DNA of 46,467 nt from a virus (Duplodnaviria > Heunggongvirae > Uroviricota > Caudoviricetes): IMG/VR virus record IMGVR_UViG_2778261457_000007; one strand, given 5' to 3'. The translations under genes and the position numbers were made by a program. This document shows positions 29,322 through 46,467 of the stretch, in pieces. Numbering within the stretch: position 1 is the stretch's first letter; the number at the start of each line of letters is the position of its first letter. The notes under the pieces are model-generated. The model was not told the DNA's origin. It ran no database searches and saw nothing but the letters and a program-made list of their open reading frames with translations.

Positions 29322-29522
29322 ATGACAGGAATTGTCAAAAACTTTGACGGCAAAAGCGGCAAGGGTCTTATCACCCCATCCGATGGTCGTATCGATGTCC
29401 AGCTTCATGTTTCAGCGCTCAATCTCCGCGATGCAGAAGAAATTACCACCGGATTACGCGTGGAATTTTACCGGATAAATGGTCTGCGTGGCCCTTCAGC
29501 TGCCAATGTTTACCTTTCATGA
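29322..29522 (+). CDS. cspF: cold-shock-domain protein (CspF/CspH-like), start codon ambiguous
   Basis: [35 protein letters not shown]...; a TAAGGAG box sits 17 nt upstream of this ATG but 5 nt upstream of an in-frame CTG at 29310. Confidence 0.7.
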
Positions 29523-29943: not shown

Positions 29944-30696
29944 TTATCTCGTCACCTTCCTCAATTGCGCTTCCGCGTATGCTTCTTCCTGCCAGCACTT
30001 TGTTACCAGTTTACCAATGACGTCCGCATACCCCTTATACCACTGATAATCGGTCAGGTCTGGTACCAGCTTCTGGACATGACGTCGTGCCAGCGTGGTC
30101 GGTAAACGACTAAACCGGTTTCCATTACAACGCCCACAAATCTTATATACCGGTACGCCATGAAACCGGGTTCTTTTTTCATCCAGAACAATCCCTTTAC
30201 CCTTACACCCTCTGCACGCTGTGCTGGCTTCGCCCTTACCATGGCAATGCTGACATAGTTCCTTCACCCATTCTTCCTTGATTACAGATTCCCCGCGTCT
30301 GTAGTGTTTCACCACTTCGCGCAATACATTATAAAATCCCGTACCTGAACAATGCTCACAGCGAGCCTTACTTGCCGCAGACCTGGAGTAATCAGCAAAG
30401 GCAAAACTCACGAGGTAAGGAATAATCTGTAACCGGATTTCTTCACTCAATTTGTTCAATGTCGGGTTATCCAGTGCCATCGCGTAATTTAGCAGGCCTT
30501 CAATCGCAAACTGAGGGTCCTGAACACCAACTTTTGCCAGAAATAAGGCCAACCCAAGTGGTGCTTTCGACTGCACCATCCCCTGCGCTGCCATTACATC
30601 CGTAATTGTTAAACAACCGGTGCCTGTCGCTGGAGCGTCATCGCTCAATTTTGGAGATTTTGGGGAGTAATATTTTGGTAAGGCTTCAAGGTTCAT
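29944..30696 (-). CDS. late-gene antiterminator Q (phage 82/21-type)
   Basis: MNLEALPKYYSPKSPKLSDDAPATGTGCLTITDV... with Cys/His zinc-binding cluster (CEHCSGTG...CQHCHGKG...CRGCKGKG); ATG at 30696 preceded by GGAG; QuuQ-like by recall. Confidence 0.8.
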   Translation of the reverse strand: MNLEALPKYYSPKSPKLSDDAPATGTGCLTITDVMAAQGMVQSKAPLGLALFLAKVGVQDPQFAIEGLLNYAMALDNPTLNKLSEEIRLQIIPYLVSFAFADYSRSAASKARCEHCSGTGFYNVLREVVKHYRRGESVIKEEWVKELCQHCHGKGEASTACRGCKGKGIVLDEKRTRFHGVPVYKICGRCNGNRFSRLPTTLARRHVQKLVPDLTDYQWYKGYADVIGKLVTKCWQEEAYAEAQLRKVTR

Positions 30697-30709
30697 GCTC
30701 GTTCTCCAC

Positions 30710-31759
30710 TTACGCCAGTACGCCAATTGCCAGCGCGCGATCGATAAAACGAAATATCAGCTCCAGTTGGGAGCCATACTTATCTTCAAATGCCACTGTA
30801 TCCGTATGCAGCTCGTTGTGATGCTTTCTGCACAAAGGCAACACAAAGAGATCATGTGCTTTTGTTCCCATTCCGCCCTGCCCGTGACCAATCAGATGAT
30901 GCGGATCGTCGGCTGGCATACCGCAGCAAGCACACGGCTGTGTCTTAACCCAACGTGTGTATTTCTCCTTAACCCAGCGGCGACGTTTAGGCAGCTTCAT
31001 GAAAGATTCCGGAGACTCTGGATCAACGGTGATGCTTACCACCGTCTTTTCCTGTGGTGATTTTTGTTGCTGGTGGGCGTAAGGCAACGGTGCAAGATTT
31101 TTTGTGCGTTGTTTCAATATGCTGGTGGCGGTCTGCTCTCCCGGTACGATGTCGCTTTCGCGGTACACCGAGCAGATTTTTTCCGCTGGTAATCCCAGCG
31201 AACGACGCGATACAGCCTCAGGTAGTGCATCCACCACCTGATTGCAGACCGTCCACCAGGATAATTCAGCCAAAGATAATTCCCGCTCCTGCGTACCGCT
31301 TATTGCGTGACGGATGACGTCAATCACCCATGCTGTCAGATTTTGTTGAGCAAGCAGCTCCAGTGATTCCGATGTCTGGTCACGCAGTTGGTTGTCGCAG
31401 TGCCAGCACAACACCATTGCGCCGGTACCATAACGGTGAATGACTGTTTCAGTGTGATGGTAATCGCCATTAGGCCACTGGCAGGATGTAACATGACGTA
31501 ATAGCCAGTCGGACAATGCGCCAACGCCGCCAGCAGCACGAATCACCCGTTCGTTACTAAAAAACGGCAGCAATGTTTTGTCTTCCGCCAGCGGCTGGCG
31601 AACGGCAGGAACGACTCCGGATGGCAGATTACGCATGCTTTTTGGTTCCGGTTCCACCAGCACTCGAGGATTATGAAATATCTGTATGGATTCACGGCCC
31701 GGCTTAAGGACCACCAGCCCAAGCTCAGGCACCAGAACAGGTCTAAGTAATACCCGCAC
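30710..31759 (-). CDS. DUF968 protein (YdfU-like) with C-terminal HNH-like Cys/His motif
   Basis: 349 aa from the GTG at 31759, which is preceded by GGAGGT; C-terminus CACCGMPADDPHHLIGHGQGG...CRKHHNELH; the ORF track starts at an upstream GTG (31798). Confidence 0.6.
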   Translation of the reverse strand: MRVLLRPVLVPELGLVVLKPGRESIQIFHNPRVLVEPEPKSMRNLPSGVVPAVRQPLAEDKTLLPFFSNERVIRAAGGVGALSDWLLRHVTSCQWPNGDYHHTETVIHRYGTGAMVLCWHCDNQLRDQTSESLELLAQQNLTAWVIDVIRHAISGTQERELSLAELSWWTVCNQVVDALPEAVSRRSLGLPAEKICSVYRESDIVPGEQTATSILKQRTKNLAPLPYAHQQQKSPQEKTVVSITVDPESPESFMKLPKRRRWVKEKYTRWVKTQPCACCGMPADDPHHLIGHGQGGMGTKAHDLFVLPLCRKHHNELHTDTVAFEDKYGSQLELIFRFIDRALAIGVLA

Positions 31760-31760
31760 G

Positions 31761-32039
31761 TTACCTCCAGATCCGTTGCTGGAAAGTGCGGGACGCACGT
31801 GGTGGGCGTTCGGAATAAGGCAGCCTGACAGAGATTATCCAGTGCCGATAGTCGAGACTGAGAGCTTTCTTAACCTCGAACCCGCGCCTGCGGTAAGAAT
31901 GAATCAGCCATTCGGCCTGTTCTGCAGTGCATGGAGGGTGCTGGAACCATTCAGACTTGAATGCGTGAGAATACCGCCCGTGCGTGCAGGCAAGAACGGG
32001 CGAATTATCAGAATTGTAATATTTTGCGTTGCGTGCCAT
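31761..32039 (-). CDS. hypothetical protein (92 aa)
   Basis: MARNAKYYNSDNSPVLACTHGRYSHAFKSEWFQHPPC...; co-oriented with neighbours, stop abuts the DUF968 start; unknown function. Confidence 0.4.
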   Translation of the reverse strand: MARNAKYYNSDNSPVLACTHGRYSHAFKSEWFQHPPCTAEQAEWLIHSYRRRGFEVKKALSLDYRHWIISVRLPYSERPPRASRTFQQRIWR

Positions 32040-32105
32040 CGGTTTTCTCCGGTGGCACGGTGTTACTCAGCGGGAGTTCAGCCCCGCGCAAGATTGTAGA
32101 TGAGT

Positions 32106-32357
32106 TTATTCTCCTGAAAAAGCAGAAAAGCCAGCTTTTATTCCGATCTCTTTCAATGCCTGTAATGAAGTGACAAACTCACCTTCGCGCAAGATAAATC
32201 CGTCCGTGACCCGAGCATCCACAAAATTAATTAACGCAGCCCCATTCTTTCGCAAACACATAATGCGGTAATGACTAACAAGATTTCCATTTTCAACGCA
32301 CACAGCATAGAGGCCATCTTCACAAAAAATTTTACGCAGTTCTTCGATGTTCATCAT
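32106..32357 (-). CDS. rem: hypothetical protein (83 aa), at the position of Qin rem
   Basis: MMNIEELRKIFCEDGLYAVCVENGNLVSHYRIMCL...; symbol assigned from gene order and length (K-12 rem is 83 aa by recall); tentative. Confidence 0.4.
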   Translation of the reverse strand: MMNIEELRKIFCEDGLYAVCVENGNLVSHYRIMCLRKNGAALINFVDARVTDGFILREGEFVTSLQALKEIGIKAGFSAFSGE

Positions 32358-32473
32358 CAGAATCCTTCCGGATAATTAGCTCTCCCCTTTAAGGGACCAT
32401 CCCTCTTATCCCTGCGCGCTACTTAAGTATTTTTGATTCTATTCCGGCACCGTCCAGAACTTCAAACGCGTTG

Positions 32474-32505
32474 AAAATAAAAACAAAAACCCGCCGAAGC
32501 GGGTT
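32474..32505 (-). terminator. intrinsic terminator downstream of hokD
   Basis: AACCCGCTTCGGCGGGTT hairpin followed by TTTTTGTTTTTATTTT on the minus strand. Confidence 0.65.
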
Positions 32506-32573
32506 AAGTGCGGGTGCGTTGAGGATGCCTGCCACATCAGAGGTGGCGAGGGATTTCTCCCCCGCCGGGTCTC

Positions 32574-32729
32574 TTACTCCTCAGGTTCGTAAGCTGTGAA
32601 GACAGCGACCTCCGTCTGGCCGGTTCGGATTCGTACCTCGCAGAGGTCTTTCCTCGTTACCAGTGCCGTCACTATGACGGTTAAACAGATGACGATCAGG
32701 GCGATTAACATCGCCTTTTGCTGCTTCAT
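32574..32729 (-). CDS. hokD: Hok-family membrane toxin (RelF)
   Basis: 51-aa ORF not in the track: MKQQKAMLIALIVICLTVIVTALVTRKDLCEVRIRTGQTEVAVFTAYEPEE; recognised as HokD. Confidence 0.85.
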   Translation of the reverse strand: MKQQKAMLIALIVICLTVIVTALVTRKDLCEVRIRTGQTEVAVFTAYEPEE

Positions 32730-32800
32730 AGCCTGCTTCTCCTGTCAACGCAAAGCAGAAGTGTCACCTTCGGTGCGAAACAGAGATGTCATGCTTTGGT

Positions 32801-33088
32801 TCAGAGAATGCGTTTGACCGCCTCGCTATATACTTCCGAGCGTTCTCTTTTCCCAACAGAAATCACGAAAACGACAACTTTCTCGTCTATAACCTGGTAT
32901 ACAAGGCGATAGCCTGAAGACCGGAGCTTAATCTTGTAACAATCAGGCATACCACGGAGCTTGTTTGCTTCAATCCGGGGTGACTCAAGTACTTCAACCA
33001 GCTTCTTTTTCAACTGTTCACGTACCGTCGAGCCCAGCTTTCGCCATTCCTTTAGTGCCCGCTCGTCAAAATCCAGAAAATACGCCAT
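32801..33088 (-). CDS. relE: RelE mRNA interferase toxin
   Basis: 95 aa MAYFLDFDERALKEWRKLGSTVREQLKKKLVEVLESPR... Confidence 0.9.
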   Translation of the reverse strand: MAYFLDFDERALKEWRKLGSTVREQLKKKLVEVLESPRIEANKLRGMPDCYKIKLRSSGYRLVYQVIDEKVVVFVISVGKRERSEVYSEAVKRIL

Positions 33089-33327
33089 CAGAGTTCATCC
33101 AGCGTCACACGTACTGGCTTAGGATTACGAAGCCGTTCTTTCACTATCTCCACAAGTTCAGCATCTTCATCACTCAGGAGTGTCTGTTTGAACGGCAAGC
33201 GTTCATTGTCAGCGATATACTCGAGCATGAGACGAAGCGCTTCAGAAGGAGTTACACCCATTTTTTCAAGCGCGGCGTAAGAACGCGCTTTAAGTTCATC
33301 GTCAATACGCAGGTTAATGCTACCCAT
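33088..33327 (-). CDS. relB: RelB antitoxin
   Basis: 79 aa MGSINLRIDDELKARSYAALEKMGVTPSEALRLMLEYIADNERLPF...; stop overlaps the relE start. Confidence 0.9.
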   Translation of the reverse strand: MGSINLRIDDELKARSYAALEKMGVTPSEALRLMLEYIADNERLPFKQTLLSDEDAELVEIVKERLRNPKPVRVTLDEL

Positions 33328-33400
33328 GTCTTACACCTCTTGTAATTACAAATGTCATTACAAGTATCGCACTACAACATGCTTAGGGCAAGTCACGAAG
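33328..33400 (-). promoter_or_regulatory. relBE promoter and operator (relO)
   Basis: TTGTAATTACAA / ATTACAA hexad repeats immediately upstream of the relB ATG. Confidence 0.6.
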
Positions 33401-33809
33401 GAAGTCAGAAAGTAGTCGTAAGAACGGTGATCACTGTCCGCTTTGTGCCAGGAGCAGCCATTGCTAAGTCCATCCTGTATTGTGCAGGTCAGCTCGTTTT
33501 TAAAGAGTCCGGCCATCATCTTACTGGTACAGACACCATATACTTTGTGACGGTCAGGCTACATATGCACAACTCAACTTATTCATCTATTTTTTGCTTT
33601 AGCATGTCAGTGTTGCTTTCTCGTCGGCGGGTGAGCGGTGACCTGACCTGTCGATAAAGGAACGTAACACGTTTTATGCAACACCCGCATGCGGCAGAAA
33701 ATTATTGCCGAACGTTTACCCCTGTCAACAAGCTTTACTTTCTGAGGCGCGCCAGCCCGCGAGGAAAACAATCTGAACATCAAACAATTAATGACACAAG
33801 AAATACGAT

Positions 33810-33836
33810 TAAAGATTTTTTTGTACATGCCGATAG
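33810..33836 (+). promoter_or_regulatory. sigma-28 (FliA) promoter of flxA
   Basis: TAAAGATT-N11-GCCGATAG, close to the FliA consensus TAAAGTTT-N11-GCCGATAA, about 25 nt upstream of the flxA ATG. Confidence 0.65.
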
Positions 33837-33859
33837 TGCTTTTTTAAAAGGAGAAATCT

Positions 33860-34192
33860 ATGTCTGTCACAATTCAGGGAAATACCTCAACCGTTATTTC
33901 AAACAACTCCGCCCCGGAAGGAACATCAGAAATAGCCAAAATCACAAGACAAATTCAGGTGCTGACTGAAAAGCTTGGGAAAATCTCATCGGAAGAGGGG
34001 ATGACGACACAGCAGAAAAAAGAAATGGCTGCATTGGTACAGAAGCAAATTGAAAGCCTCTGGGCTCAACTGGAGCAGTTGTTAAGGCAGCAGGCAGAGA
34101 AAAAGAATGAAGACGCGACAGTTCAGCCTGATAAAAAAGAAGAGAAAAAAGACGATACAAATACCGCTGGCACCATTGATATTTACGTCTAA
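33860..34192 (+). CDS. flxA: FlxA (FliA-regulated prophage protein)
   Basis: 110 aa MSVTIQGNTSTVISNNSAPEGTSEIAKITRQIQVLTEKLGK...; AGGAG upstream of the ATG. Confidence 0.85.
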   Translation: MSVTIQGNTSTVISNNSAPEGTSEIAKITRQIQVLTEKLGKISSEEGMTTQQKKEMAALVQKQIESLWAQLEQLLRQQAEKKNEDATVQPDKKEEKKDDTNTAGTIDIYV

Positions 34193-34628
34193 GTGACAGC
34201 CGTATTGTGGCCCTCATCGGGCCACTTTTCGCCATCAGCCTTTTCTTTAAAGACATATTATCTTTGTATCATTTCTGATAGTTAACATTACAAGATATAA
34301 GTAATGGACGCACTCCCAATTAGTCTATTTAAATCGCCACGAGTTTAACTGACAACCCATGATCAATTATGAATTGCAACTATTTCTGTAGTCACTTTTG
34401 TGGGGACAGTCCACAAAACTGCCAACTTCCGCTTCTTGCTCTTAGCGGACATTAGCATAGGCTATTTACCATAACGCCTCATTACGCGCACCGCCCAGAC
34501 TGACTCAGCGCGTTTCTGGCATATCCCCGGTAAAACAAGTAACAAACCACCCGAAAATGAACACCAGAAACGCGACTTAAGAATCTACCCTATGAATGGA
34601 TATGCACTCAACCGAATCGATCTTGGTT

Positions 34629-35969
34629 TCAATCTTTTTTATCGGGATCAGGCTTCTTTTTAGGTAACTTCGGGGGCTTAACTTGCTGATGACTTTGCGT
34701 TCGGCGCGTAAGCCAGGGATGGTCAGCTTTAGGTTTAACATAGTATTTTGAGCGTAAATCAATACGGGCATTATCCACTCGTTCATGGACACTCTTTTCA
34801 TCATCCAGTGGTATAGGCTCCGGGCCATCAACATACTTTTCCCAGCCCAGCGCTTTCCCGTCATACAGAACGTTAATTTCACCGTCAAAGTTCTCGCATA
34901 CAGTAACAACCGAATGCCTAAGTCGATATCCCCGGCTCTCACTGCGTACCTGAAACGCACTGCTTTTGTACTGGAAAGTGAGATTTTTAGACAGAACGCG
35001 CTTCGCCTGTAGGCTGAAGATATAACCCAGTTCCTCTTCAGAATGGTGCACATCAAGATGAGCATTATCAGTAGTACGAGGCGACGTAGCGAACCGGTTG
35101 TTATAGGCTTCAATAAAGGTCGGCAACCATGCATTTGCTGTTTCAATATCACTGATATTCTGAAGCCGCATTTCTTTGACCAGCCTGTCCTGTAGTGTCT
35201 GATTGGCGCGCTCTACCCGCCCTTTTGCCTGCGGGCTGTTGGCATGGATTGGCTCGATGCCCAGTGTCTTTATCGCACGAGTGAACTGGGTCAGCTCACC
35301 TTCCCGCTCTGGGTTATTTACCCTGAATATACTGTGTCTATCAGAGTAGAGAGCGAGCGGTACGCCATGATCATTAAGGTAACCCCGGAGGGTTTCCATG
35401 TAAGCCCGGGTTGTTTCAGCAGGCACAAAACGCAACGCCATCAACGCACTGGTGGCATCATCAATGAAAACGATCAGTGTACATCTGGGGCCTCGATTTT
35501 CAAACCAGTCATGAGGTGAGCCATCAATCTGGATCAGTTCACCGTAAGATGGTCGTCGCATGCGGCGTTGATATATACGGGCAATTTTACGACGGCGTTC
35601 ACGCCATAACCCCTCTTCTATCATCCACTTTCTGAGAGTTTCAACGGATAAAGATAAACCGTGTATCTCGCGCAATTTTTCGCACGCAAACGTAGGTCCA
35701 AAATCAGCGTAACGGCCTTTGAGGAGTGAAATTACTGTTGCTCTGAATTCAGTAGAAAAGGAATTATTAGGACGCTTTCCACGTCGGTGGGAAACCAGAC
35801 CAGAAGGCCCTTCATTTCTATACCGTTGCACCAGACGTTTAACCTGCCGAATAGAAATGCCAATGCGTGCCGCAGCTTGTTCCTGAGTAATATGTCGATT
35901 AATTGACTCCTGAATAATCTGAAGTCGGTGGAGTTCCTTATGACTCATCGTAACAGTCTCTTTGATCAT
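34629..35969 (-). CDS. DDE transposase / integrase-core (rve-type) protein with N-terminal HTH; IS-like element, boundaries unresolved
   Basis: 446 aa MIKETVTMSHKELHRLQIIQESINRHITQEQAAARIGISIRQVKRL..., integrase-core-like middle region and lysine-rich tail; GGGGGA upstream of the ATG; IS family not determinable without a search. Confidence 0.7.
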   Translation of the reverse strand: MIKETVTMSHKELHRLQIIQESINRHITQEQAAARIGISIRQVKRLVQRYRNEGPSGLVSHRRGKRPNNSFSTEFRATVISLLKGRYADFGPTFACEKLREIHGLSLSVETLRKWMIEEGLWRERRRKIARIYQRRMRRPSYGELIQIDGSPHDWFENRGPRCTLIVFIDDATSALMALRFVPAETTRAYMETLRGYLNDHGVPLALYSDRHSIFRVNNPEREGELTQFTRAIKTLGIEPIHANSPQAKGRVERANQTLQDRLVKEMRLQNISDIETANAWLPTFIEAYNNRFATSPRTTDNAHLDVHHSEEELGYIFSLQAKRVLSKNLTFQYKSSAFQVRSESRGYRLRHSVVTVCENFDGEINVLYDGKALGWEKYVDGPEPIPLDDEKSVHERVDNARIDLRSKYYVKPKADHPWLTRRTQSHQQVKPPKLPKKKPDPDKKD

Positions 35970-36303
35970 GAAAAATCCCCCAGAGAATTGTCTGGGGACA
36001 TTTTAGAATGGTTCAAAGGGGACATTACAGCTTGGTGTTAACAATAGCCTGCTTCTCCGTGCCTTTCGGCACGTAAGAGGCTAACCTACATGTGTCTAGC
36101 ATGAAATTGGCCTCAGATTAATGTTAAGCGTCTTGCAGGACGCGTAATGTTAACTGGGGCTTTTCTCTATCTGCCGTTGGTGTCCATGCCCGAGGCAGAT
36201 AGCCTCAAGCACCCGCAGTCATTCTACTTAACTAAGATTTCCCCGCAAACCGTTTTTGTCCAGCACAGTAAATATCCAACTAAACCAATGGAGTTCGCTG
36301 TAT

Positions 36304-36483
36304 TTACCGCCAGTATTCAATGCACATGACCGCCATGAACACCCCTAAAAAAAGGGCATTTATATATCCAAATATTAATATCAAAACATCAACTTTTTCC
36401 ATATACCTTGCTGTGAAGATGATGGGCATACATGATGCGAACAACCAGAACGCAACAAACAAAAACTGCAATGCGTTTTTCAT
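36304..36483 (-). CDS. candidate small two-TM membrane protein (59 aa)
   Basis: AGGAGG 5 nt upstream of the ATG at 36483; MKNALQFLFVAFWLFASCMPIIFTARYMEKVDVLILIFGYINALFLGVFMAVMCIEYWR. Confidence 0.4.
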   Translation of the reverse strand: MKNALQFLFVAFWLFASCMPIIFTARYMEKVDVLILIFGYINALFLGVFMAVMCIEYWR

Positions 36484-37634
36484 TATTCCTCCTACAATCA
36501 ATGTGCAATTACATTTAAACACACCTCAATTTGGCCGGACATATAAATATCTAAACCAGAAAAAATCACTTACATAGCGTTACAAACTCTTTAGTCTAAA
36601 GGTTCATCGTAAAACATTCCCCATACTTATCAGTCCGTTCCGCGCCAGGTAGCTCATTGCCTTATCTGGCAACCTGTAATCAGGTTTCCGCTTTTTCAGT
36701 TGGCTGGTCGTTTAACCGACATAGTTAATCCATTAATCTAGTTGCCGGATGTTGGTGGATTTTCGCGTTTTAGTTGTTCATAAAAGTGCACAGCTTTAAC
36801 CAGTTCTTCTGATGTAACCGGGACTGGTGAGGCAGTGAATAAGGCCTGAATTTGATAGTTCGGCCTGTCGTTACAATCCTCTTTTTTCGGTACATATTTC
36901 CAGTCACCAGACCACTACTTCCCCTGAAAGTCCGTAACGCTTTTTTCACGTAGCGATATCGCCATGCCACTGGTTTTGCTTGCCCCGCCGTTTCATGCCC
37001 TTCCTGATAATTAATCTCGCTCATTCATCGCCCCACTCATCACAATATGCTTCGACCGGAGTTTTTCCCGCTTCATAGTCATCACGTTAGGATTCGACAT
37101 CAGCAGCACTTCCACCGCGTAATTCACCATAGTCCATTAATAGTTCATCCCGCTCTTCAAAACTGATGTTATATTTAGCTGAACAAAAATCAGCCACTTT
37201 GTTCTTCCTCATCGTCTTTTATTTCGTGGTATGAGTAATTGCAGTAGTTAAAGAAAATTTCTTATGCTCCGTCATGAATTTCATCAGGTGTTGCGTCATC
37301 GTCCACTTCGAATACATCCTCAAAATCTCCACCAGCTATTTCCGTTTCAATAATAATTTTGAACTTTCGCATTTCACTACCGCCCTTTCGGGCGGCCTCC
37401 TGATGTTCTGAGGGTGCAGAAATCCATCCGGTTAAGGATTAAGTTTTATTTACAGAACTGAATTTAATTATTCAGATATACGTATCTGTAACCTTACGAA
37501 TCTACTCACTGGATGCCTCTTTCATAAAAATAATCCAGTGGGTTTTATCGTTTTTTCCCTGTTCGTTGACAGATAACAGGCTTTCTATCTGTCAGTGCCA
37601 GAATCTGGCTTACCGGTATTTGCGTTTCATTCCA

Positions 37635-37991
37635 TTAAAAAATCAGAACGCCGTGCGGCCTCAACACCCGAAAAGCTTCTTTAAATCTCTGTCGCAAATC
37701 ATCACGCCAGGCATCTTTATTCAGCCGTCCATATTTCTTTCCCATCCAGGCGTTATCACCAACACGCTCAAGATGCGGAGGGTCTAATACAACCATCGAA
37801 AAAGATGCGTCTGCAAATGATAATGCACGAAAATCTGCGATAATGTCAGGGCTGATAATCAAGCGTCTCCCATTGCGTAATGTGTATCCTTCTTTTCTGA
37901 TATCGCTGAATATCGCCCGTTTGTCAGACTTATCGAACCAGAACATGCGGCTGCCACAGCACATATCAAGAATGGTTGCCGGTGCACTCAC
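37635..37991 (-). CDS. small DNA/RNA amino-methyltransferase-like protein, possibly truncated
   Basis: 118 aa with motif-I-like ILDMCCGSRMF and motif-IV DPPH about 55 residues later, then stop; GTG start overlaps the upstream stop (GTGA). Confidence 0.5.
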   Translation of the reverse strand: MSAPATILDMCCGSRMFWFDKSDKRAIFSDIRKEGYTLRNGRRLIISPDIIADFRALSFADASFSMVVLDPPHLERVGDNAWMGKKYGRLNKDAWRDDLRQRFKEAFRVLRPHGVLIF

Positions 37992-38410
37992 TGCGCCACG
38001 TCCTGAAAATTACCCTGATAGAAAGCCAGTATGCGCTGCATAACTTCGCTCTTCCGGCACTCGCGACAGATTATGTTTAGGCGACTGTCGTAGCGACGTA
38101 TTTCTCCGTCAGGTGATGACCAGATAAGGTCCGGATCAACCATAGCAGGTTTCTTCACCTTTGCCCTCGAGAGTTTTTTGCGGGCGTTTTGCCAGTCCTT
38201 ACGCGCCTGTTCAGAGGGGAATAACCCGTAGCCGGAGTTGTATACATCGCCACTGGCTACCAGCTCTCTGGCAAGAACGCTCATCAGATATCTAGTCGCA
38301 CCTGTTTTAGCTTCCAGTTGCCGTAACGTCTCACGGCCGCTCTGGCGCACGAGTTCCACCACCTGCCATTTAATTTTTTCCCGCTCTTCTTGTGTAAAAA
38401 CTTTTGCCAC
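37988..38410 (-). CDS. hypothetical protein (140 aa), translationally coupled to the methyltransferase-like gene
   Basis: MAKVFTQEEREKIKWQVVELVRQSGRETLRQLEAKTGATRYLMSVLARELV...; Cys pair ICRECRK; unknown function. Confidence 0.45.
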   Translation of the reverse strand: MAKVFTQEEREKIKWQVVELVRQSGRETLRQLEAKTGATRYLMSVLARELVASGDVYNSGYGLFPSEQARKDWQNARKKLSRAKVKKPAMVDPDLIWSSPDGEIRRYDSRLNIICRECRKSEVMQRILAFYQGNFQDVAQ

Positions 38411-38450
38411 AAGTCCCCCTTAAAATTACCTCATGACCTGAAATCAACAC

Positions 38451-39416
38451 TTATCCTCTGAAACCAGGCGGAATTTCTGTATCCGGTTCAGAAATATGAT
38501 TAACACAACGCTGTACAGGTGAACGTCCCAGGCGGATGACCAGTTCGTCCCATTTTTCGCGGAGCTTTGACGGGCTCATGATGTTTTTTACCCAGAATGG
38601 ATCTCGCTGAACCCGACCAAACATTTCGCAAATTTGTCTGTGGCTTCTGCCATCCAGCATCCGCATTGTGCGCACGTCATTGGCCCAGGCAGTCCAGTTA
38701 GGCTCTTTTGGTCGCATGATCTCGCCATCATCACTGGCTGCCTGTTCGTAGAGACCCACGATCCGCCCCCAGATCCACTGCGCACACGCCAAATCCTCCC
38801 TGCTACCCCACTGGCGTTTTTTCGCACTAAACACAACCGCGTCGGAGTTCCGGGTTAAAGAATCCTGTTCAGTCGTCTGCGGGTCCGGTTGCGAAGCTTC
38901 CGGACGAAAAGTGTTTTTATTCTCTGTAGTAATCTCTGTTGTATTCTCTGTAAGATCATCAGGCCATTTTGACCCGATGACATTGGGTCGTTTTGAACCA
39001 ATGGAGCGTTTCATTTTGACCTCTTCCATCGTGTCATTTTGACCTGATGGAGCGGCGCATTTTGAACCGATGGATTCGCTCAATTTGCCACCATCTAAAA
39101 GCTCGCTCCCATAGTTGATCGTGTAGAAATTGGTCATATCGCGCTTTGATTTATTGAGCTTTTCACAACGCAAAAGCCCCAGCGTTTTCAGACTTGCAAA
39201 CGCGCGCTTTAACGTTGACTCTGACCAGAATGGGAACTGTTCCAGCCATTGTTCCGTTGTGTTATAAATCCAGCGAACACCATCACATTCCATGCCGGAG
39301 TTGGTATCTCTCAACCAGTAGTGCAGTTGTTGCAAAACAATGGCTTCGTTTAAGCCAATTTTCATTGCCAGCTGCGTGTTTATAACCAGTGGGCGTTCAG
39401 CAAAAAGAAGGCTCAT
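38451..39416 (-). CDS. phage replication initiator (O-analog, N-terminal winged-helix-like domain)
   Basis: MSLLFAERPLVINTQLAMKIGLNEAIVLQQLHYWL...; contains the iteron array in its coding sequence; ORF track starts at an upstream TTG (39470). Confidence 0.65.
   Translation of the reverse strand: MSLLFAERPLVINTQLAMKIGLNEAIVLQQLHYWLRDTNSGMECDGVRWIYNTTEQWLEQFPFWSESTLKRAFASLKTLGLLRCEKLNKSKRDMTNFYTINYGSELLDGGKLSESIGSKCAAPSGQNDTMEEVKMKRSIGSKRPNVIGSKWPDDLTENTTEITTENKNTFRPEASQPDPQTTEQDSLTRNSDAVVFSAKKRQWGSREDLACAQWIWGRIVGLYEQAASDDGEIMRPKEPNWTAWANDVRTMRMLDGRSHRQICEMFGRVQRDPFWVKNIMSPSKLREKWDELVIRLGRSPVQRCVNHISEPDTEIPPGFRG
38965..39080. repeat. iteron array, five direct repeats at about 23-bp spacing (candidate replication origin)
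   Basis: CATTTTGACC / TTTTGAACC cores at 38967, 38991, 39014, 39037 and 39060; adjacent TCTCTGT-repeat A/T-rich tract at 38910-38950. Confidence 0.6.
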
Positions 39417-39918
39417 AATTCCATCCAGCTTTTTGTTGGTATTGCTGTCGATACGCAAGCTTGAAAGCAATTGCTTTTTCTATAAGTTCGTCAGTTTCAC
39501 GATCCACTACGGCAGGATCAGCAAAAAGCAGTCCGGACTCCACCACATCGCCATATTCTTTGTTTAACCCGGCGATCATGCACGTGATGCTTTTTCCGTC
39601 AGTAATTTCACGATACAACCTGAAATCACTAATCCGGATAGCCTCCATAATCGCAGGCACTAGCGCCGTGAACTTTTCACGCTTATCCCTGGTGTCGATA
39701 GCCTTCCAGCGTTCGAATATCTTCACTCGATTAACACCAAGCGCTCGCTGATCAACCGCGCCACCTTCATCTGTGACACGCTGAACATCGATGTTCGGGC
39801 GCTCTTTCAAAGCCCAGAATGCTTCAGTGATTAATATCGTCGCCTGCTCCTGTGTCATTCCTGGTCGACATATCCAGGCATCCAGAGCCTCACGAGCCTG
39901 TTCAGGAGTGATTTTCAT
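39397..39918 (-). CDS. hypothetical protein (173 aa) between dicC and the replication gene
   Basis: MKITPEQAREALDAWICRPGMTQEQATILITEAFWALKERP...; overlaps both neighbours by short stretches. Confidence 0.45.
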   Translation of the reverse strand: MKITPEQAREALDAWICRPGMTQEQATILITEAFWALKERPNIDVQRVTDEGGAVDQRALGVNRVKIFERWKAIDTRDKREKFTALVPAIMEAIRISDFRLYREITDGKSITCMIAGLNKEYGDVVESGLLFADPAVVDRETDELIEKAIAFKLAYRQQYQQKAGWNYEPSFC

Positions 39919-40129
39919 TGTTCAACCGCCCCGCCCGCTTCGTCTTACGATATTCATCATAAACTTTGGGATCATACTGAAGCTCCCCGCCAGATGCCTC
40001 CTGTAGACGCATCGCGCGACCTTCAGGAACCAGTATCCCCCAAGCAGCAACACTTGCCAGCCTCACTCCTGCGGCATTGGCAAGCTTTGTTTTGCTGCCA
40101 AAAAAAGTAATTGCGTCAACTTTAAGCAT
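39902..40129 (-). CDS. dicC: Cro-like regulator DicC
   Basis: MLKVDAITFFGSKTKLANAAGVRLASVAAWGILVPEGRAMRLQEASGGELQYDPKVY...; ATG at 40129 preceded by GAGGGGGG; divergent from dicA. Confidence 0.8.
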   Translation of the reverse strand: MLKVDAITFFGSKTKLANAAGVRLASVAAWGILVPEGRAMRLQEASGGELQYDPKVYDEYRKTKRAGRLNNENHS

Positions 40130-40142
40130 CAAAGCCCCCCTC

Positions 40143-40162
40143 TTGTTAGACTTTTCTAACAT
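40143..40162. promoter_or_regulatory. operator palindrome in the dicC-dicA divergent promoter region
   Basis: TTGTTAGA-CTTT-TCTAACA inverted repeat read directly. Confidence 0.6.
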
Positions 40163-40210
40163 TATTGTGCGCGGGATACCTAAGTCAAGAAAAATTAGAA
40201 TTACCTAACT

Positions 40211-40618
40211 ATGGATACAAGAACCCTGGGCCAGCGAGTTCTGGCGCGACGAAAAGAATTACGCTTAACACAACGAGAAGCCGCGCGCCTCGCTGGAGTT
40301 GCTCACGTCACAATTTCACAATGGGAAAGAGACGAAACCCAGCCAGTCGGAAAACGATTGTTTGCTTTAGCGGATGCTCTGAAGTGCTCACCTACATGGC
40401 TAATGTTTGGTGACGAAGACAAGGCACCAGTGCCTGCACAAGAACTTCATGTGGAAACAGAGCTAACTCCCAACCACAAAGAATTGATCGAATTATTCGA
40501 TGCTCTTCCATCTTCCGAGCAGGAAGCCTTGCTGTCTGAAATGCGCGCAAGAGTAGAAAACTTCAACAAACTCTTCGAAGAAATGCTTAAAGCGCGTAAA
40601 AATAAATCAATAAAATAA
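40211..40618 (+). CDS. dicA: XRE-family repressor DicA
   Basis: 135 aa with HTH (LTQREAARLAGVAHVTISQWERDETQP) and conserved C-terminus EMRARVENFNKLFEEMLKARK; DicA-like by recall. Confidence 0.85.
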   Translation: MDTRTLGQRVLARRKELRLTQREAARLAGVAHVTISQWERDETQPVGKRLFALADALKCSPTWLMFGDEDKAPVPAQELHVETELTPNHKELIELFDALPSSEQEALLSEMRARVENFNKLFEEMLKARKNKSIK

Positions 40619-40653
40619 CATTCTTTTCAAGTGATTAGTTGCGCCCACCCTTT

Positions 40654-40708
40654 TTGTTAGATCAATCTAACAAAAAACACTTGCCTCTCATGTTAGGTTA
40701 TTCTAAAT
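40654..40708. promoter_or_regulatory. second operator cluster downstream of dicA, upstream of ydfA
   Basis: TTGTTAGA-TCAA-TCTAACAA at 40654-40673 plus a degenerate copy TGTTAGG-TTAT-TCTAAAT at 40691-40708. Confidence 0.55.
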
Positions 40709-40786
40709 TATTTTCCATCAAGACACCGCACGGTGTTCTCAGCAAACAGTTCCGCTACCCCGGCGTTAAGGGGAAATGAGGTCAGC

Positions 40787-40942
40787 ATGGATACTATCGA
40801 TCTTGGCAACAGCGAATCTCTGGTATGTGGCGTGTTCCCCAACCAGGACGGTACGTTCACCGCGATGACGTATACCAAAAGCAAAACGTTTAAAACCGAA
40901 AATGGTGCCCGTCGCTGGCTGGAAAGAAACCCAGGTGAGTGA
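40787..40942 (+). CDS. ydfA: YdfA (DUF1391) small protein
   Basis: MDTIDLGNSESLVCGVFPNQDGTFTAMTYTKSKTFKTENGARRWLERNPGE (51 aa). Confidence 0.75.
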   Translation: MDTIDLGNSESLVCGVFPNQDGTFTAMTYTKSKTFKTENGARRWLERNPGE

Positions 40943-40943
40943 T

Positions 40944-41072
40944 ATGGATTTCGACACAATCATGGAAAAGGCTTACGAAGAATACTTCGAAGGTCTTGCC
41001 GACGGCGAAGAAGCTCTCAGCTTCAACGAATTTAAACAGGCGCTTTCCAGTTCGGCAAAATCTAACGGCTGA
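40944..41072 (+). CDS. ydfB: YdfB small protein
   Basis: 42-aa ORF MDFDTIMEKAYEEYFEGLADGEEALSFNEFKQALSSSAKSNG, starting 2 nt after the ydfA stop. Confidence 0.65.
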   Translation: MDFDTIMEKAYEEYFEGLADGEEALSFNEFKQALSSSAKSNG

Positions 41073-41101
41073 TAAGCGAAACAGCACCGCGAGGAATCAG
41101 T

Positions 41102-41320
41102 ATGCAGAAACGAGAACCCGTCATCATCGCGCCAGACTATACCGATGATGAACTTTATGAGTGGATGCGCCAGAAAATTAATGCAGCGCAGGATTTGAAA
41201 TGGGCCAATGAAACCAGGGCTAAGCAGGCTGAAAATCTGTCCGCTCTGGAGCAGGATATCACCAATCTGGAAAAAGCAGCGGCATTAAGCATTGCCAGAA
41301 TGATTACATACCCGCGTTAG
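41102..41320 (+). CDS. ydfC: YdfC small protein
   Basis: 72 aa MQKREPVIIAPDYTDDELYEWMRQKINAAQDLKWANETRAKQAENLSALEQ... Confidence 0.75.
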   Translation: MQKREPVIIAPDYTDDELYEWMRQKINAAQDLKWANETRAKQAENLSALEQDITNLEKAAALSIARMITYPR

Positions 41321-41660
41321 TAGCTAATCAACAAAGCTAAGGTTAGTAATTAAGGAGTTCTCCACGGGTGAGGTGGAGTGCGTGCGCCGGACACGGGTGA
41401 GCATCCGGCACTGACAGTTTACTGAAAGGATATTTCCCTGAAAAGTCAGACCATAACGCGAAAGCGCACGGCGAGGTAGCTGGTTCATAGATAGCCTGTC
41501 GTTAAATTTTCGTCGACCGTGCGCTTCCGGTTGTGGCAACCCGCGAAATGGCGCGGCGGTAAGTATGGCGGGGTTATTCCTTCCCCGTTGAGGACACCGG
41601 GTTGTCAGGTTGACCATACGCTTAAGTGACAACCCCGCTGCAACGCCCTCTGTTATCAAT

Positions 41661-41713
41661 TTTCTGGTGACGTTTGGCGGTATTAGTTTTACTCCGTGAC
41701 TGCTCTGCCGCCC
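41661..41713 (+). ncRNA. dicF: DicF small regulatory RNA
   Basis: TTTCTGGTGACGTTTGGCGGTATTAGTTTTACTCCGTGACTGCTCTGCCGCCC followed by TTTTT; matches DicF from memory apart from one position. Confidence 0.85.
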
Positions 41714-41887
41714 TTTTTAAAGTGAATTTTGTGATGTGGTGAATGCGGCTGAGCGCACGCGGAACAGTTAAAACCAAAAACAGTGTTATGGGTGGATTCT
41801 CTGTATCCGGCGTTAATTGTTAACTGGTTAACGTCACCTGGAGGCACCAGGCACTGCATCACAAAATTCATTGTTGAGGACGCGATA

Positions 41888-42076
41888 ATGAAAACGTTAT
41901 TACCAAACGTTAATACGTCTGAAGGTTGTTTTGAAATTGGTGTCACTATCAGTAACCCAGTATTTACTGAAGATGCCATTAACAAGAGAAAACAAGAACG
42001 GGAGCTATTAAATAAAATATGCATTGTTTCAATGCTGGCTCGTTTACGTCTGATGCCAAAAGGATGTGCACAATGA
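41888..42076 (+). CDS. dicB: cell-division inhibitor DicB
   Basis: MKTLLPNVNTSEGCFEIGVTISNPVFTEDAINKRKQERELLNKICIVSMLARLRLMPKGCAQ (62 aa); GAGGA upstream of the ATG. Confidence 0.85.
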   Translation: MKTLLPNVNTSEGCFEIGVTISNPVFTEDAINKRKQERELLNKICIVSMLARLRLMPKGCAQ

Positions 42077-42264
42077 ATTCAGCATTTGTGCTTGTTCTGA
42101 CAGTTTTTCTTGTTTCCGGAGAGCCAGTTGATATTGCAGTCAGTGTGCACAGGACAATGCAGGAGTGTATGACTGCAGCAACCGAACAGAAAATTCCCGG
42201 TAACTGTTACCCGGTCGATAAAGTTATTCACCAGGATAATATCGAAATCCCGGCAGGTCTTTAA
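42073..42264 (+). CDS. ydfD: YdfD small membrane protein
   Basis: MNSAFVLVLTVFLVSGEPVDIAVSVHRTMQECMTAATEQKIPGNCYPVDKVIHQDNIEIPAGL (63 aa); ATGA overlap with the dicB stop. Confidence 0.8.
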   Translation: MNSAFVLVLTVFLVSGEPVDIAVSVHRTMQECMTAATEQKIPGNCYPVDKVIHQDNIEIPAGL

Positions 42265-42356
42265 AACAGTTCCGTAATAAATATCCGGTTTCATTCTTAT
42301 ATGCCAGCAATGGCAGGGATTTGTTCATCCTTAAATCTGTCATGAGGTTAAAACAA

Positions 42357-44828
42357 ATGAGTAAAGTCTTTATTTGCGCCGCTATTCCTGACGAACTGGC
42401 AACAAGGGAAGAAGGCGCTGTGGCTGTAGCCACAGCCATTGAAGCTGGCGACGAACGCCGTGCTCGAGCAAAATTTCACTGGCAATTCCTGGAACATTAT
42501 CCGGCTGCTCAGGACTGCGCTTATAAATTTATTGTCTGCGAGGATAAACCTGGCATACCCCGCCCTGCCCTCGATTCATGGGATGCTGAATATATGCAGG
42601 AAAACCGCTGGGATGAGGAGTCTGCTTCTTTTGTCCCGGTTGAGACTGAATCCGATCCGATGAACGTCACTTTTGACAAGCTGGCCCCTGAAGTACAGAA
42701 CGCTGTCATGGTTAAGTTCGACACATGTGAAAACATCACCGTTGATATGGTTATTAGCGCACAGGAATTGTTGCAGGAAGACATGGCAACATTCGACGGA
42801 CATATCGTTGAAGCGTTGATGAAAATGCCAGAAGTTAACGCCATGTATCCGGAGCTTAAGTTGCACGCCATTGGGTGGGTTAAGCATAAATGTATTCCTG
42901 GTGCTAAATGGCCCGAAATTCAGGCAGAGATGCGCATCTGGAAAAAACGTCGCGAAGGTGAACGCAAGGAAACCGGAAAATACACGTCTGTTGTTGATCT
43001 CGCCCGCGCCAGAGCCAATCAACAGTACACTGAAAATTCAACAGGAAAAATCAGCCCGGTCATTGCTGCCATTCATCGCGAATACAAGCAGACATGGAAA
43101 ACACTGGATGACGAACTGGCCTACGCTCTCTGGCCTGGTGATGTGGATGCCGGAAACATTGACGGCAGCATCCATCGCTGGGCAAAAAAAGAAGTTATCG
43201 ACAACGACCGCGAAGACTGGAAGCGTATCTCGGCATCAATGCGCAAACAGCCTGATGCCCTTCGCTACGACCGCCAAACTATTTTTGGCCTTGTCCGTGA
43301 GCGTCCGATCGACATTCACAAAGATCCCGTAGCACTGAACAAATATATCTGCGAATACCTGACGACAAAGGGCGTGTTTGAGAATGAAGAAACAGACCTG
43401 GGCACTGTTGATGTTCTCCAGTCATCAGAAACACAAACTGATGCAGTGGAAACTGAGGTATCTGATATCCCAAAAAATGAAACCGCGCCGGAAGCTGAAC
43501 CATCTGTAGAGCGTGAGGGGCCGTTCTATTTCCTCTTCGCAGATAAGGACGGAGAAAAATACGGTCGCGCAAACAAACTCTCTGGTCTGGATAATGCACT
43601 GGCTGCTGGCGCCACTGAAATCACAAAAGAAGAATATTTTGCCCGAAAAAATGGCACATACACGGGCTTACCGCAAAATGTAGATACCGCTGAAGATTCA
43701 GAACAACCAGAGCCGATAAAAGTTACCGCTGACGAAGTAAACAAAATTATGCAGGCAGCCAATATCAGCCAGCCTGACGCCGATAAGTTGCTTGCTGCAT
43801 CACGTGGTGAATTTGTTGAAGGGATTAGTGACCCGAATGATCCGAAATGGGTTAAGGGGCTCCAGACCCGCGATTCTGTGAACCAGAACCAGCATGAATC
43901 GGAACGGAACTACCAAAAAGCGGAACAAAACAGTCCAAATGCGTTACAAAACGAGCCAGAAACGAAACAGCCTGAACCAGTAGCGCAACAGGAAGTGGAA
44001 AAAGTCTGCACCGCCTGCGGTCAGACCGGCGGCGGCAACTGCCCTGATTGTGGCGCGGTGATGGGCGACGCAACATACCAAGAAACATTCGATGAAGAGT
44101 ATCAGGTTGAAGTTCAGGAAGATGATCCGGAGGAAATGGAAGGCGCTGAACATCCACACAAGGAGAACACTGGCGGCAATCAGCATCACAATAGCGATAA
44201 TGAAACTGGCGAGACGGCAGATCACCCAATTAAGGTGAACGGTCATCACGAAATCACATCCACCAGCAGGACGTGTGACCATCTAATGATCGACCTTGAA
44301 ACCATGGGAAAAAATCCTGATGCCCCGATCATCTCAATAGGTGCAATATTTTTCGATCCGCAAACCGGAGATATGGGACCGGAATTTAGTAAGACTATCG
44401 ATCTGGAAACTGCTGGCGGAGTCATTGATCGGGACACCATTAAATGGTGGCTTAAGCAATCACGCGAAGCGCAATCTGCCATTATGACCGATGAAATCCC
44501 GTTAGATGATGCACTGTTACAATTGCGAGAATTTATCGACGAAAACTCCGGTGAATTTTTTGTTCAGGTTTGGGGAAATGGAGCCAACTTCGACAACACG
44601 ATTTTGCGCCGTTCATACGAACGGCAGGGGATCCCCTGCCCGTGGCGTTACTACAACGATCGCGATGTACGCACAATCGTTGAGCTGGGGAAAGCCATAG
44701 ACTTCGATGCCAGAACGGCTATTCCATTCGAAGGTGAGCGCCATAATGCACTTGATGACGCCCGTTACCAGGCAAAATACGTTTCAGTTATCTGGCAAAA
44801 ACTGATCCCGAGTCAGGCTGATTCTTAA
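42357..44828 (+). CDS. large multidomain protein (YdfE-like) with zinc ribbon and C-terminal DEDDh 3'-5' exonuclease domain
   Basis: 823 aa from MSKVFICAAIPDELATREEG (GAGG upstream of the ATG); zinc ribbon CTACGQTGGGNCPDCG; exonuclease motifs MIDLET, WGNGANFD, HNALDDARY. Confidence 0.7.
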   Translation: MSKVFICAAIPDELATREEGAVAVATAIEAGDERRARAKFHWQFLEHYPAAQDCAYKFIVCEDKPGIPRPALDSWDAEYMQENRWDEESASFVPVETESDPMNVTFDKLAPEVQNAVMVKFDTCENITVDMVISAQELLQEDMATFDGHIVEALMKMPEVNAMYPELKLHAIGWVKHKCIPGAKWPEIQAEMRIWKKRREGERKETGKYTSVVDLARARANQQYTENSTGKISPVIAAIHREYKQTWKTLDDELAYALWPGDVDAGNIDGSIHRWAKKEVIDNDREDWKRISASMRKQPDALRYDRQTIFGLVRERPIDIHKDPVALNKYICEYLTTKGVFENEETDLGTVDVLQSSETQTDAVETEVSDIPKNETAPEAEPSVEREGPFYFLFADKDGEKYGRANKLSGLDNALAAGATEITKEEYFARKNGTYTGLPQNVDTAEDSEQPEPIKVTADEVNKIMQAANISQPDADKLLAASRGEFVEGISDPNDPKWVKGLQTRDSVNQNQHESERNYQKAEQNSPNALQNEPETKQPEPVAQQEVEKVCTACGQTGGGNCPDCGAVMGDATYQETFDEEYQVEVQEDDPEEMEGAEHPHKENTGGNQHHNSDNETGETADHPIKVNGHHEITSTSRTCDHLMIDLETMGKNPDAPIISIGAIFFDPQTGDMGPEFSKTIDLETAGGVIDRDTIKWWLKQSREAQSAIMTDEIPLDDALLQLREFIDENSGEFFVQVWGNGANFDNTILRRSYERQGIPCPWRYYNDRDVRTIVELGKAIDFDARTAIPFEGERHNALDDARYQAKYVSVIWQKLIPSQADS

Positions 44829-44900
44829 TGTTCAACTGTCGCCGGTTGTGACTGGTATTCTGCAACCGGCGCTCGTCTGATGTAAGAGATAAAGAAATCG

Positions 44901-45152
44901 ATGAGCGAAGTAATCATGATTGTCTCTCCCGGCAAATGGGTATCCGAAGAGCAGTTAATTGCGCTGAAAGGAATAAAAAAAGGTACGTTAAAAAAGGCCC
45001 GGGAAAAATCGTTTATGGAAGGAAGGGAATATAAGCATGTCGCTCATGACGGTATGCCATGGGATAACAGTCCATGCTTTTACAACCTGGAAGAAATTGA
45101 TCGCTGGATTGAGCGCCAGGCATCAGCGAGACCAAGACGTCATCTTACTTGA
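44901..45152 (+). CDS. excisionase-like protein
   Basis: 83 aa MSEVIMIVSPGKWVSEEQLIALKGIKKGTLKKAREKSFMEGREYKH...; immediately upstream of the integrase. Confidence 0.6.
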   Translation: MSEVIMIVSPGKWVSEEQLIALKGIKKGTLKKAREKSFMEGREYKHVAHDGMPWDNSPCFYNLEEIDRWIERQASARPRRHLT

Positions 45153-45186
45153 CTAAAAGTCACACTAACTAATGAGAGAAGTTGAA

Positions 45187-46467
45187 ATGAAATATCCGAC
45201 AGGCGTGGAAAACCATGGAGGGAAATTACGTATCTGGTTTGTTTATAAAGACGTAAGAGTCAGGGAAAATCTGGGGGTTCCTGACACAGCAAAAAACAGG
45301 CGCGTTGCAGGTGAACTACGCTCCTCTGTTTGTTACGCAATAAAAACTGGTGTTTTCGACTATGCAAAACAGTTTCCCTCCTCACGCAATCTGGAAAAAT
45401 TTGGTGAGGCCCGACAAGATTTAACCATAAAAGAACTGGCTGAAAAATTTCTGGCACTGAAAGAAACTGAAGTCGCCAAAACATCACTCAACACATACCG
45501 TGCCGTCATCAAAAATATCCTGAGCATAATCGGTGAAAAAAATCTTGCCTCATCGATTAATAAAGAAAAATTACTGGAGGTTCGTAAAGAGTTACTGACT
45601 GGATACCAGATCCCCAAAAGTAACTATATTGTTACACAACCAGGGAGATCGGCTGTAACTGTAAATAATTACATGACAAATCTTAACGCCGTGTTCCAGT
45701 TTGGTGTTGATAACGGTTACCTGGCAGATAATCCGTTTAAGGGGATCTCGCCATTAAAGGAATCAAGAACCATTCCGGATCCTCTTTCGCGGGAAGAATT
45801 TATCCGTCTTATCGATGCGTGCAGAAATCAGCAAGCAAAAAATTTATGGTGTGTTTCTGTTTATACTGGAGTTCGCCCTGGTGAGCTGTGTGCACTTGGA
45901 TGGGAGGACATAGATCTGAAAAATGGAACAATGATGATCAGGAGAAATTTAGCAAAAGACCGTTTCACGGTACCAAAAACACAGGCGGGAACCAATCGGG
46001 TCATTCATCTTATTAAGCCAGCAATCGACGCTCTCCGGAGTCAGATGACATTAACGAGACTGAGCAAAGAGCATATCATTGATGTTCACCTCAGAGAGTA
46101 TGGCAGAACAGAAAAACAAAAATGCACCTTTGTTTTTCAACCTGAAGTGTCAGCGAGAGTAAAAAATTATGGTGACCATTTTACCGTTGACTCAATAAGG
46201 CAGATGTGGGACGCAGCGATAAAACGTGCCGGACTCCGCCATCGAAAATCATATCAGTCGAGACATACTTATGCCTGCTGGTCGCTGACAGCTGGTGCTA
46301 ACCCGGCATTTATAGCAAACCAGATGGGCCATGCAGATGCGCAAATGGTATTTCAGGTATACGGAAAATGGATGTCTGAAAACAATAATGCACAGGTAGC
46401 TTTGTTAAATACACAGTTAAGCGAGTTTGCCCCAACCATGCCCCATAACGAAGCAATGAAAAATTAA
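45187..46467 (+). CDS. tyrosine recombinase / phage integrase
   Basis: MKYPTGVENHGGKLRIWFVY...; catalytic-domain features (RHTYACW, terminal VYGKW); start ambiguous between 45172 and 45187; stop at the window end. Confidence 0.8.
   Translation: MKYPTGVENHGGKLRIWFVYKDVRVRENLGVPDTAKNRRVAGELRSSVCYAIKTGVFDYAKQFPSSRNLEKFGEARQDLTIKELAEKFLALKETEVAKTSLNTYRAVIKNILSIIGEKNLASSINKEKLLEVRKELLTGYQIPKSNYIVTQPGRSAVTVNNYMTNLNAVFQFGVDNGYLADNPFKGISPLKESRTIPDPLSREEFIRLIDACRNQQAKNLWCVSVYTGVRPGELCALGWEDIDLKNGTMMIRRNLAKDRFTVPKTQAGTNRVIHLIKPAIDALRSQMTLTRLSKEHIIDVHLREYGRTEKQKCTFVFQPEVSARVKNYGDHFTVDSIRQMWDAAIKRAGLRHRKSYQSRHTYACWSLTAGANPAFIANQMGHADAQMVFQVYGKWMSENNNAQVALLNTQLSEFAPTMPHNEAMKN

Follow-up and report, generated by a model that had tools for sequence, protein, structure and literature searches.

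A 118-codon methyltransferase-like ORF in a Qin-type prophage is very probably the front part of a pseudogene

Introduction

On the minus strand of a 46,467-nt stretch of Caudoviricetes DNA (IMG/VR record IMGVR_UViG_2778261457_000007; "the window" hereafter), a 118-aa ORF with methyltransferase motifs begins on the stop codon of an ORF encoding a 140-aa protein. Is so short an ORF a complete methylase or what is left of a longer one, and do the two overlapping genes act as a pair? An original prediction, made from the sequence alone, took the 118-aa ORF either for a minimal or orphan methylase or for the 5' remnant of a gamma-class enzyme that had degraded, and regarded it as coupled to a helix-turn-helix-like protein of unknown function. 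We conclude, with a probability of about 93%, that the 118-aa ORF is the front part of a methyltransferase pseudogene, the gene having been inactivated by a stop codon and a frameshift. The pseudogene status is already known, in that the public PGAP/RefSeq annotation flags this locus.

Results

Positions 30000 to 46467 of the window are 100% identical to a chromosomal region in several E. coli strains. PGAP annotation of those identical regions assigns them to a Qin-type lambdoid prophage of E. coli. Its late and accessory genes (ydfT antiterminator, ydfU, rem, hokD, relBE, flxA, ydfW) are followed by an ISEsa1 transposase fragment, two pseudogenes and then the gene of the 140-aa protein, a member of the DUF977 family. 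Beyond the DUF977 gene come an O-like replication gene, a YdaT/cII-like gene, cro and a cI-like repressor gene, and the remainder of the element consists of ydfABC, dicB, ydfD, an exonuclease gene, xis and int. A DicF antisense sRNA (RF00039, 70.8 bits) is found between ydfC and dicB at 41662-41713 on the plus strand, which confirms the Qin type. The hokD and relBE genes carried by the same element lie at 32574-33327.

The O-like replication initiator (38451-39416, minus strand, PGAP coordinates; phrog_391, E-value 6.3e-91) lies directly upstream of the DUF977 gene, which thus occupies the "ren" slot. There is no separate P/DnaC-type helicase loader between the two genes. A weak match links the last 20 residues of the initiator to the C-terminal end of primosomal DnaT (NCBIfam NF002770, E-value 0.006). 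The locus under study therefore lies distally in the early-right operon of a Qin-type lambdoid prophage, just past the replication gene. The order along the minus strand would be cro, a cII/YdaT-like gene, the O-like initiator, the Ren-like DUF977 gene, the small orphan methyltransferase gene and further decayed early genes.

One such decayed early gene lies at 36604-37024 (minus strand), just downstream of the methyltransferase pseudogene, and is annotated by PGAP as "hypothetical protein; frameshifted; internal stop"; the DNA flanking it matches regions annotated as Ead/Ea22-like in other phages. The entire distal early region is undergoing erosion. Further on, a full-length Rfam match to the sok antitoxin RNA (RF01794, 104 bits; 36043-36214, minus strand), which carries no PGAP annotation in the identical locus, adjoins the truncated ISEsa1 (IS1202-like) transposase fragment at 34899-35969 (minus strand). 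No intact hok-like ORF is present beside the sok match, and the segment looks like a remnant of a hok/sok type I toxin-antitoxin system severed by the insertion sequence. No nuclease or other defence partner adjoins the methyltransferase gene, its neighbours being the replication gene, the Ren-like gene and decayed early genes. A promoter and terminator scan of 36500-40300 returned promoters at a level not above expectation.

Both ORFs and both motifs of the original prediction are present. The 118-aa ORF (37635-37991, minus strand, GTG start) exhibits ILDMCCGSRMF at residues 7-17 and DPPH at residues 70-73, and it corresponds to the N-terminal 73% of the methyltransferase. It matches the phrog_954 "DNA methyltransferase" profile with an E-value of 9e-60 (profile positions 52-165 of 229) and the PADLOC model MTase_II (PDLC03288) with an E-value of 1e-46 (positions 3-122 of 169). 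Pfam and NCBIfam gave marginal hits to the generic Methyltransf_11/25 models only, and no family-level model. Over its 118 residues the ORF is 87-89% identical to intact E. coli members. The phrog_954 match, together with the Pfam DUF977 match of the upstream protein (E-value 5.5e-29), indicates that neither ORF is a chance ORF. The overlap was also read correctly: the minus-strand sequence of 37988-37991 is GTGA, so that the methyltransferase gene opens with a GTG lying over the TGA that closes the DUF977 gene, an arrangement invariant in six E. coli loci. A Shine-Dalgarno sequence AGGA is read 9 nt upstream of the GTG. The Gly-to-Arg "substitution" proposed for motif I turned out to be no lesion. 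In an alignment of 34 diverse family members the consensus of this motif is ILDACCGSRMF, the position in question is R or K across the family (peptide pattern [SGA][RK]), and the motif I pattern LDxCCGx[RK] (residues 7-15) is present in the ORF together with the invariant D70-P71-P72-H73.

The actual lesions lie further downstream. The original prediction omitted that the end of the ORF at 37635 is a nonsense mutation and that homology continues to 37502. The whole pseudogene, of a ~162-aa orphan class I SAM-dependent methyltransferase, spans 37502-37991 (minus strand) according to tblastn, DNA alignment and PGAP. A premature TAA (37635-37637; changed base 37637; DNA alignment column 359) stands in place of the Lys119 codon AAA. 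Past this stop, homology runs in frame for 27 more codons, and the frame then changes at codon 145-146. There, a GGG run (37557-37559; alignment column 437) contains a 1-nt insertion relative to the GG of intact alleles, and the frame is shifted. Accordingly, a tblastn search with P0008, an intact 162-aa E. coli homolog (89% identical), matched residues 1-146 in one frame, with the in-frame stop inside, and residues 145-162 in the next. Translated through the stop, the window reads "...GVLIF*WNETQIPVSQILALTDRKPVICQRTGKK", still matching the "...GVLIFKWNETQIPVSQILALTDEKPAIGQRTGKNDKTHWIIFVK" of a 160-aa Klebsiella phage homolog, and the tail "KNDKTHWIIFMKEASSE*" is found in the neighbouring frame. 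Deletion of one G from the run at 37557-37559 restores the ending "...QRTGKNDKTHWIIFMKEASSE*". The end of this frame-restored translation is the ancestral stop TAG (37502-37504), and the PGAP pseudogene ends at this position too. At the identical locus, PGAP annotates 37502-37946 as [quoted passage not shown].

A longer homolog, whose existence would reveal truncation, was found. Intact relatives measure 157-162 aa in E. coli (157 aa in strains 2014C-3655 and CAU16175) and 157-170 aa elsewhere (Salmonella, Klebsiella and others). Among the family members listed, those shorter than ~145 aa are truncated copies of the same kind or come from short contigs. The idea of a minimal or orphan methylase complete at 118 aa does not agree with the longer gene carried by related genomes, and the degraded 5' fragment is the part of the original prediction that holds, given the TAA at K119, the 1-nt insertion and the longer relatives.

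The homopolymer context of the insertion (GGGAAAAAAC) is a common site of sequencing error and of slippage. One may therefore ask whether the two lesions arose in sequencing or assembly, or whether programmed recoding bypasses them to yield a full-length enzyme. However, the same two lesions were found in all the independently assembled Qin-type copies that were fetched, namely phage PhiR42_1 and the chromosomes of ATCC 8739, CFSAN064036 and ZYS9073. An exact 35-mer with the TAA, designed so that every 28-nt seed word spans the mutated base, is present in 475 of 5426 complete E. coli genomes, with one chromosomal copy each; its Lys version is present in 386 genomes. Recoding would need both readthrough of the TAA and a +1 shift ~80 nt later. 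We rejected it on the grounds that two separate events are required and that other conserved residues are mutated too, the extra substitutions at conserved sites indicating decay. The probability left to error or recoding is negligible.

Independent decay of the gene is seen in further lineages. The methyltransferase of O157:H7 SS52 (3097-3570 of the extracted locus) has W95*. The copy of phage HannyBb (2434-2640 of the extracted locus) has an internal deletion after about residue 58, which leaves 68 aa. In O104:H4 2009EL-2071 (2499-2993 of the extracted locus) the ORF is annotated as intact, yet two invariant positions are changed in it, by G114R and K119N.

In the 34-member alignment, D9, D30, R32, P48, D70, P71, P72, H73, E105, R108, G114, K119, W120 and P138 are invariant. 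The TAA replaces K119 (conserved in 34/34 diverse homologs), and W120 and P138 are lost with what follows it. An AlphaFold model of the intact protein (mean pLDDT 92.9) resembles class I SAM methyltransferases, and a methyltransferase fold is supported. The model has strands at residues 7-11, 26-30, 34-37, 43-46 and 64-70 and helices at 82-87 and 95-109 in its N-terminal part. In its C-terminal part it has a strand at 110-121, a helix at 127-131 and strands at 138-144 and 150-156. Relative to this model, the fragment lacks the end of strand 110-121, the last helix 127-131 and the final two sheet strands 138-144 and 150-156, and the window copy is without the complete family core (residues 5-158). 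From the missing K119, W120, P138, last helix and two strands we infer that the product of the 118-aa ORF would be unstable and catalytically dead.

Signs of relaxed constraint are also seen. In the window allele, two positions that are conserved in 32 of the 34 sequences are changed (F69L and G102R), and P58S and G141C are present in addition. Codon changes unique to its lineage number 12 non-synonymous versus 10 synonymous, against 15 versus 68 for the intact Klebsiella phage lineage (Fisher p = 0.0016). This pattern of codon changes fits what drift after inactivation would produce. The otherwise invariant Lys119 codon became TAA by an A-to-T change, and the frame was lost to a 1-nt insertion further on. 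The A-to-T change also extends a T-run to T6 after a weak hairpin (37646-37669, minus strand; 8 pairs, 3 of them G-C), a terminator-like match at the level of pattern only.

The 118-aa ORF is probably still translatable, since its GTG start, its AGGA Shine-Dalgarno sequence and its overlap with the upstream stop are all kept. These features, together with the retained motif I and DPPH, could be taken to mean that the ORF is functional in its own right, as a minimal or orphan methyltransferase or a SAM-binding regulator. It is also widespread, hundreds of genomes keeping it with at least 95% identity, and it has been deposited as a normal "class I SAM-dependent methyltransferase" CDS in some records (e.g. 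WP_001310834.1 and the PhiR42_1 CDS). Yet such a protein would have to do without three invariant residues and two core beta-strands, with homology extending beyond its stop, substitutions at the near-invariant F69 and G102, and a raised non-synonymous/synonymous ratio. Its preservation is equally explained by recent vertical inheritance within one prophage lineage. We consider a function of the ORF in its own right highly unlikely, and retain the reading of a pseudogene.

The parent gene of this pseudogene is a minimal orphan class I SAM methyltransferase without a target-recognition domain (TRD), widespread in temperate phages. The family comprises 2030 clusters at 50% identity, nearly all aligned over residues 5-158 of the 162-aa query. 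The intact protein matches the REBASE-derived PADLOC models MTase_II (E-value 2.4e-71) and oMTase (PDLC03730; E-value 1.3e-47), which indicates that the family is already filed in curated collections under orphan or type II DNA methylases. Members occur in the temperate phages Listeria A118 (34528-34998, annotated "DNA methyltransferase"), Lactobacillus A2 and phig1e, and Enterococcus phiFL1A and phiEf11, further in pneumococcal and S. pyogenes prophages, and in Gordonia, Acinetobacter, Vibrio and Porphyromonas phages. Identities to those phage members are 45-64%, and 34% to a haloarchaeal virus member (HSTV-1, 28891-29373). The literature search found no experimentally characterised member of the family, and "DNA methyltransferase" is an annotation only.

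The gamma-class parentage contained in the original prediction did not survive. A gamma-class N6-adenine DNA methyltransferase was ruled out because the full-length relatives (157-170 aa) end after beta-strand 7 and have no TRD. A match of this class by a DNA methylase profile or structure was likewise not obtained. The Pfam N6_N4_Mtase match of the methyltransferase is below cutoff (E-value 0.12), and the nearest folds found for the intact protein by Foldseek are generic class I SAM methyltransferases and m2G RNA methyltransferases, with 8s9m at rank 39 as the only DNA methyltransferase among the matches listed. A PDB sequence search with a full-length homolog gave nothing significant, and a family-profile search of the PDB weakly retrieved only generic methyltransferases, Trm11 and an RsmD-like protein. 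M.EcoGIX was considered as a relative and dropped, being a plasmid-borne single-strand-specific methyltransferase that does not belong to this prophage family.

The gene upstream is intact. It encodes a 140-aa DUF977/LygF "Ren-like" protein (37988-38410, minus strand, GTG start; Pfam PF06163, phrog_142). The PF06163 match covers profile positions 1-134 of 134 with 101.4 bits against a cutoff of 22.1. The helix-turn-helix-like segment noticed originally is consistent with a published profile analysis that placed DUF977 in the winged-helix class (PMC2686095). In the AF2 model, residues 10-80 (pLDDT above 87) form three helices, a wing and one further helix; the C-terminal half is of low confidence, and the input alignment is shallow, all homologs being at least 86% identical. 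Foldseek matches of this model to MarR, GntR and IclR winged helices are weak (E-value of 0.01 or higher). The protein gave no PADLOC hit, and the literature search found no functional study of the LygF phage protein.

The relationship to Ren is seen at several levels. The 140-aa protein matches phrog_142 "Ren-like exclusion protein" with an E-value of 1.7e-47, and lambda Ren itself matches this profile with 1.6e-41. Over its residues 112-131 the protein shares 50% identity with residues 73-92 of Ren. The lambda gene order is O-P-ren-ninB, and the DUF977 gene lies directly downstream of replication genes in the window and in other E. coli prophage loci. Lambda ren mutants are sensitive to Rex exclusion. 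A recent preprint describes Ren as "likely involved in DNA replication" and reports that it contacts Rex proteins in two-hybrid assays (bioRxiv 10.1101/2021.04.19.439022). By this likeness, the 140-aa protein is probably a Ren-like winged-helix protein belonging to the replication module, and it would work independently of the methyltransferase.

Is it nevertheless one half of a pair? The order of a DUF977 gene followed by the methyltransferase gene recurs across E. coli prophages with different replication modules. We counted the pairing at the 80 closest viral-contig loci encoding the methyltransferase (64-95% identical), 79 of which could be assessed, a flank being too short to judge at one locus. 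DUF977 lies directly upstream of the methyltransferase at 11 loci, lies upstream with other genes between at another 11, and was not detected within 3 kb at 57; very distant winged-helix partners would escape this tblastn scan with two enterobacterial queries. Individual genomes illustrate the same variety. Two genes separate DUF977 from the methyltransferase in Klebsiella phage ST846-OXA48phi9.2, the O157 methyltransferase copies are preceded by an unrelated gene, and in phages of Listeria, Enterococcus, Streptococcus and Gordonia other genes stand alongside the family members. Rac/Qin-like E. coli prophages do share the overlap, but the coupled pair is a weak reading, a DUF977 gene lying directly upstream in only 11/79 loci.

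The strongest form of the coupling idea is a two-component enzyme, of which the window would be a decayed example and in which the winged helix of DUF977 targets the methyltransferase to DNA in trans. The 4-nt overlapped pairing does occur in several distinct E. coli backbones, with O-like and with YdaU/YdaV/DUF1627 replication modules, and the intact methyltransferase has no TRD of its own. Against this, DUF977 is undetectable within 3 kb at 57/79 loci and separated by genes at 11/79, it remains intact in 475-genome-scale lineages with a dead methyltransferase, and lambda carries Ren without a methyltransferase. A two-component enzyme is thus extremely unlikely. Since adjacency holds at just 11/79 loci, and since DUF977 is intact beside a dead methyltransferase in the window and the other Qin-type copies fetched, we conclude that the adjacency reflects modular gene order in a tightly packed lambdoid early operon and not a functional two-protein unit.

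Discussion

The locus is an ordinary case of accessory-gene decay in a Qin-type prophage, cryptic or semi-cryptic, and as such it matters little. Its practical consequence is one of annotation hygiene: surveys of methylomes or of restriction-modification systems should leave the 118-aa ORF out of their counts of active methylases. The family of ~160-aa TRD-less proteins, whose conservation across phyla is unusual (phages of Proteobacteria, Firmicutes, Actinobacteria and Bacteroidetes), may merit study through an intact member and not through the window copy. As a long shot, the substrate of the intact family might be no sequence-specific DNA site but, for instance, DNA methylated without specificity, single-stranded DNA or a conserved host RNA, and in enterobacterial prophages the Ren-like winged-helix protein encoded upstream might target the enzyme in trans. 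It is a similarly long shot that the fragment in the window has been kept as a SAM-binding or regulatory peptide.

The closest systems for the methyltransferase are found within its own family, PHROG 954 (P0008, Klebsiella phage QBP07693.1, A118), with which it shares motif I LDxCCGxR, DPPH and the early-operon slot after the replication genes, whereas the window copy is cut at K119, has a frameshift beyond it and carries substitutions at F69 and G102. The (D/N)PP(Y/F)-type RNA amino-group methyltransferases (Trm11, TrmN, RsmC and Trm14; m2G) are also among the closest known systems. Gamma-class N6-adenine DNA methyltransferases resemble it in that motif I precedes motif IV and in the DPP-aromatic motif. 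For the 140-aa protein, the comparison group consists of lambda Ren and the DUF977 proteins (LygF, Rac-type YdaW-like). Its likeness to lambda Ren lies in the C-terminal xECRxSxxMxRxLAxY segment, in phrog_142 and in the slot directly after a replication gene; it differs from Ren in being 44 aa longer and in that only the C-terminal 20 aa of the two proteins align pairwise.
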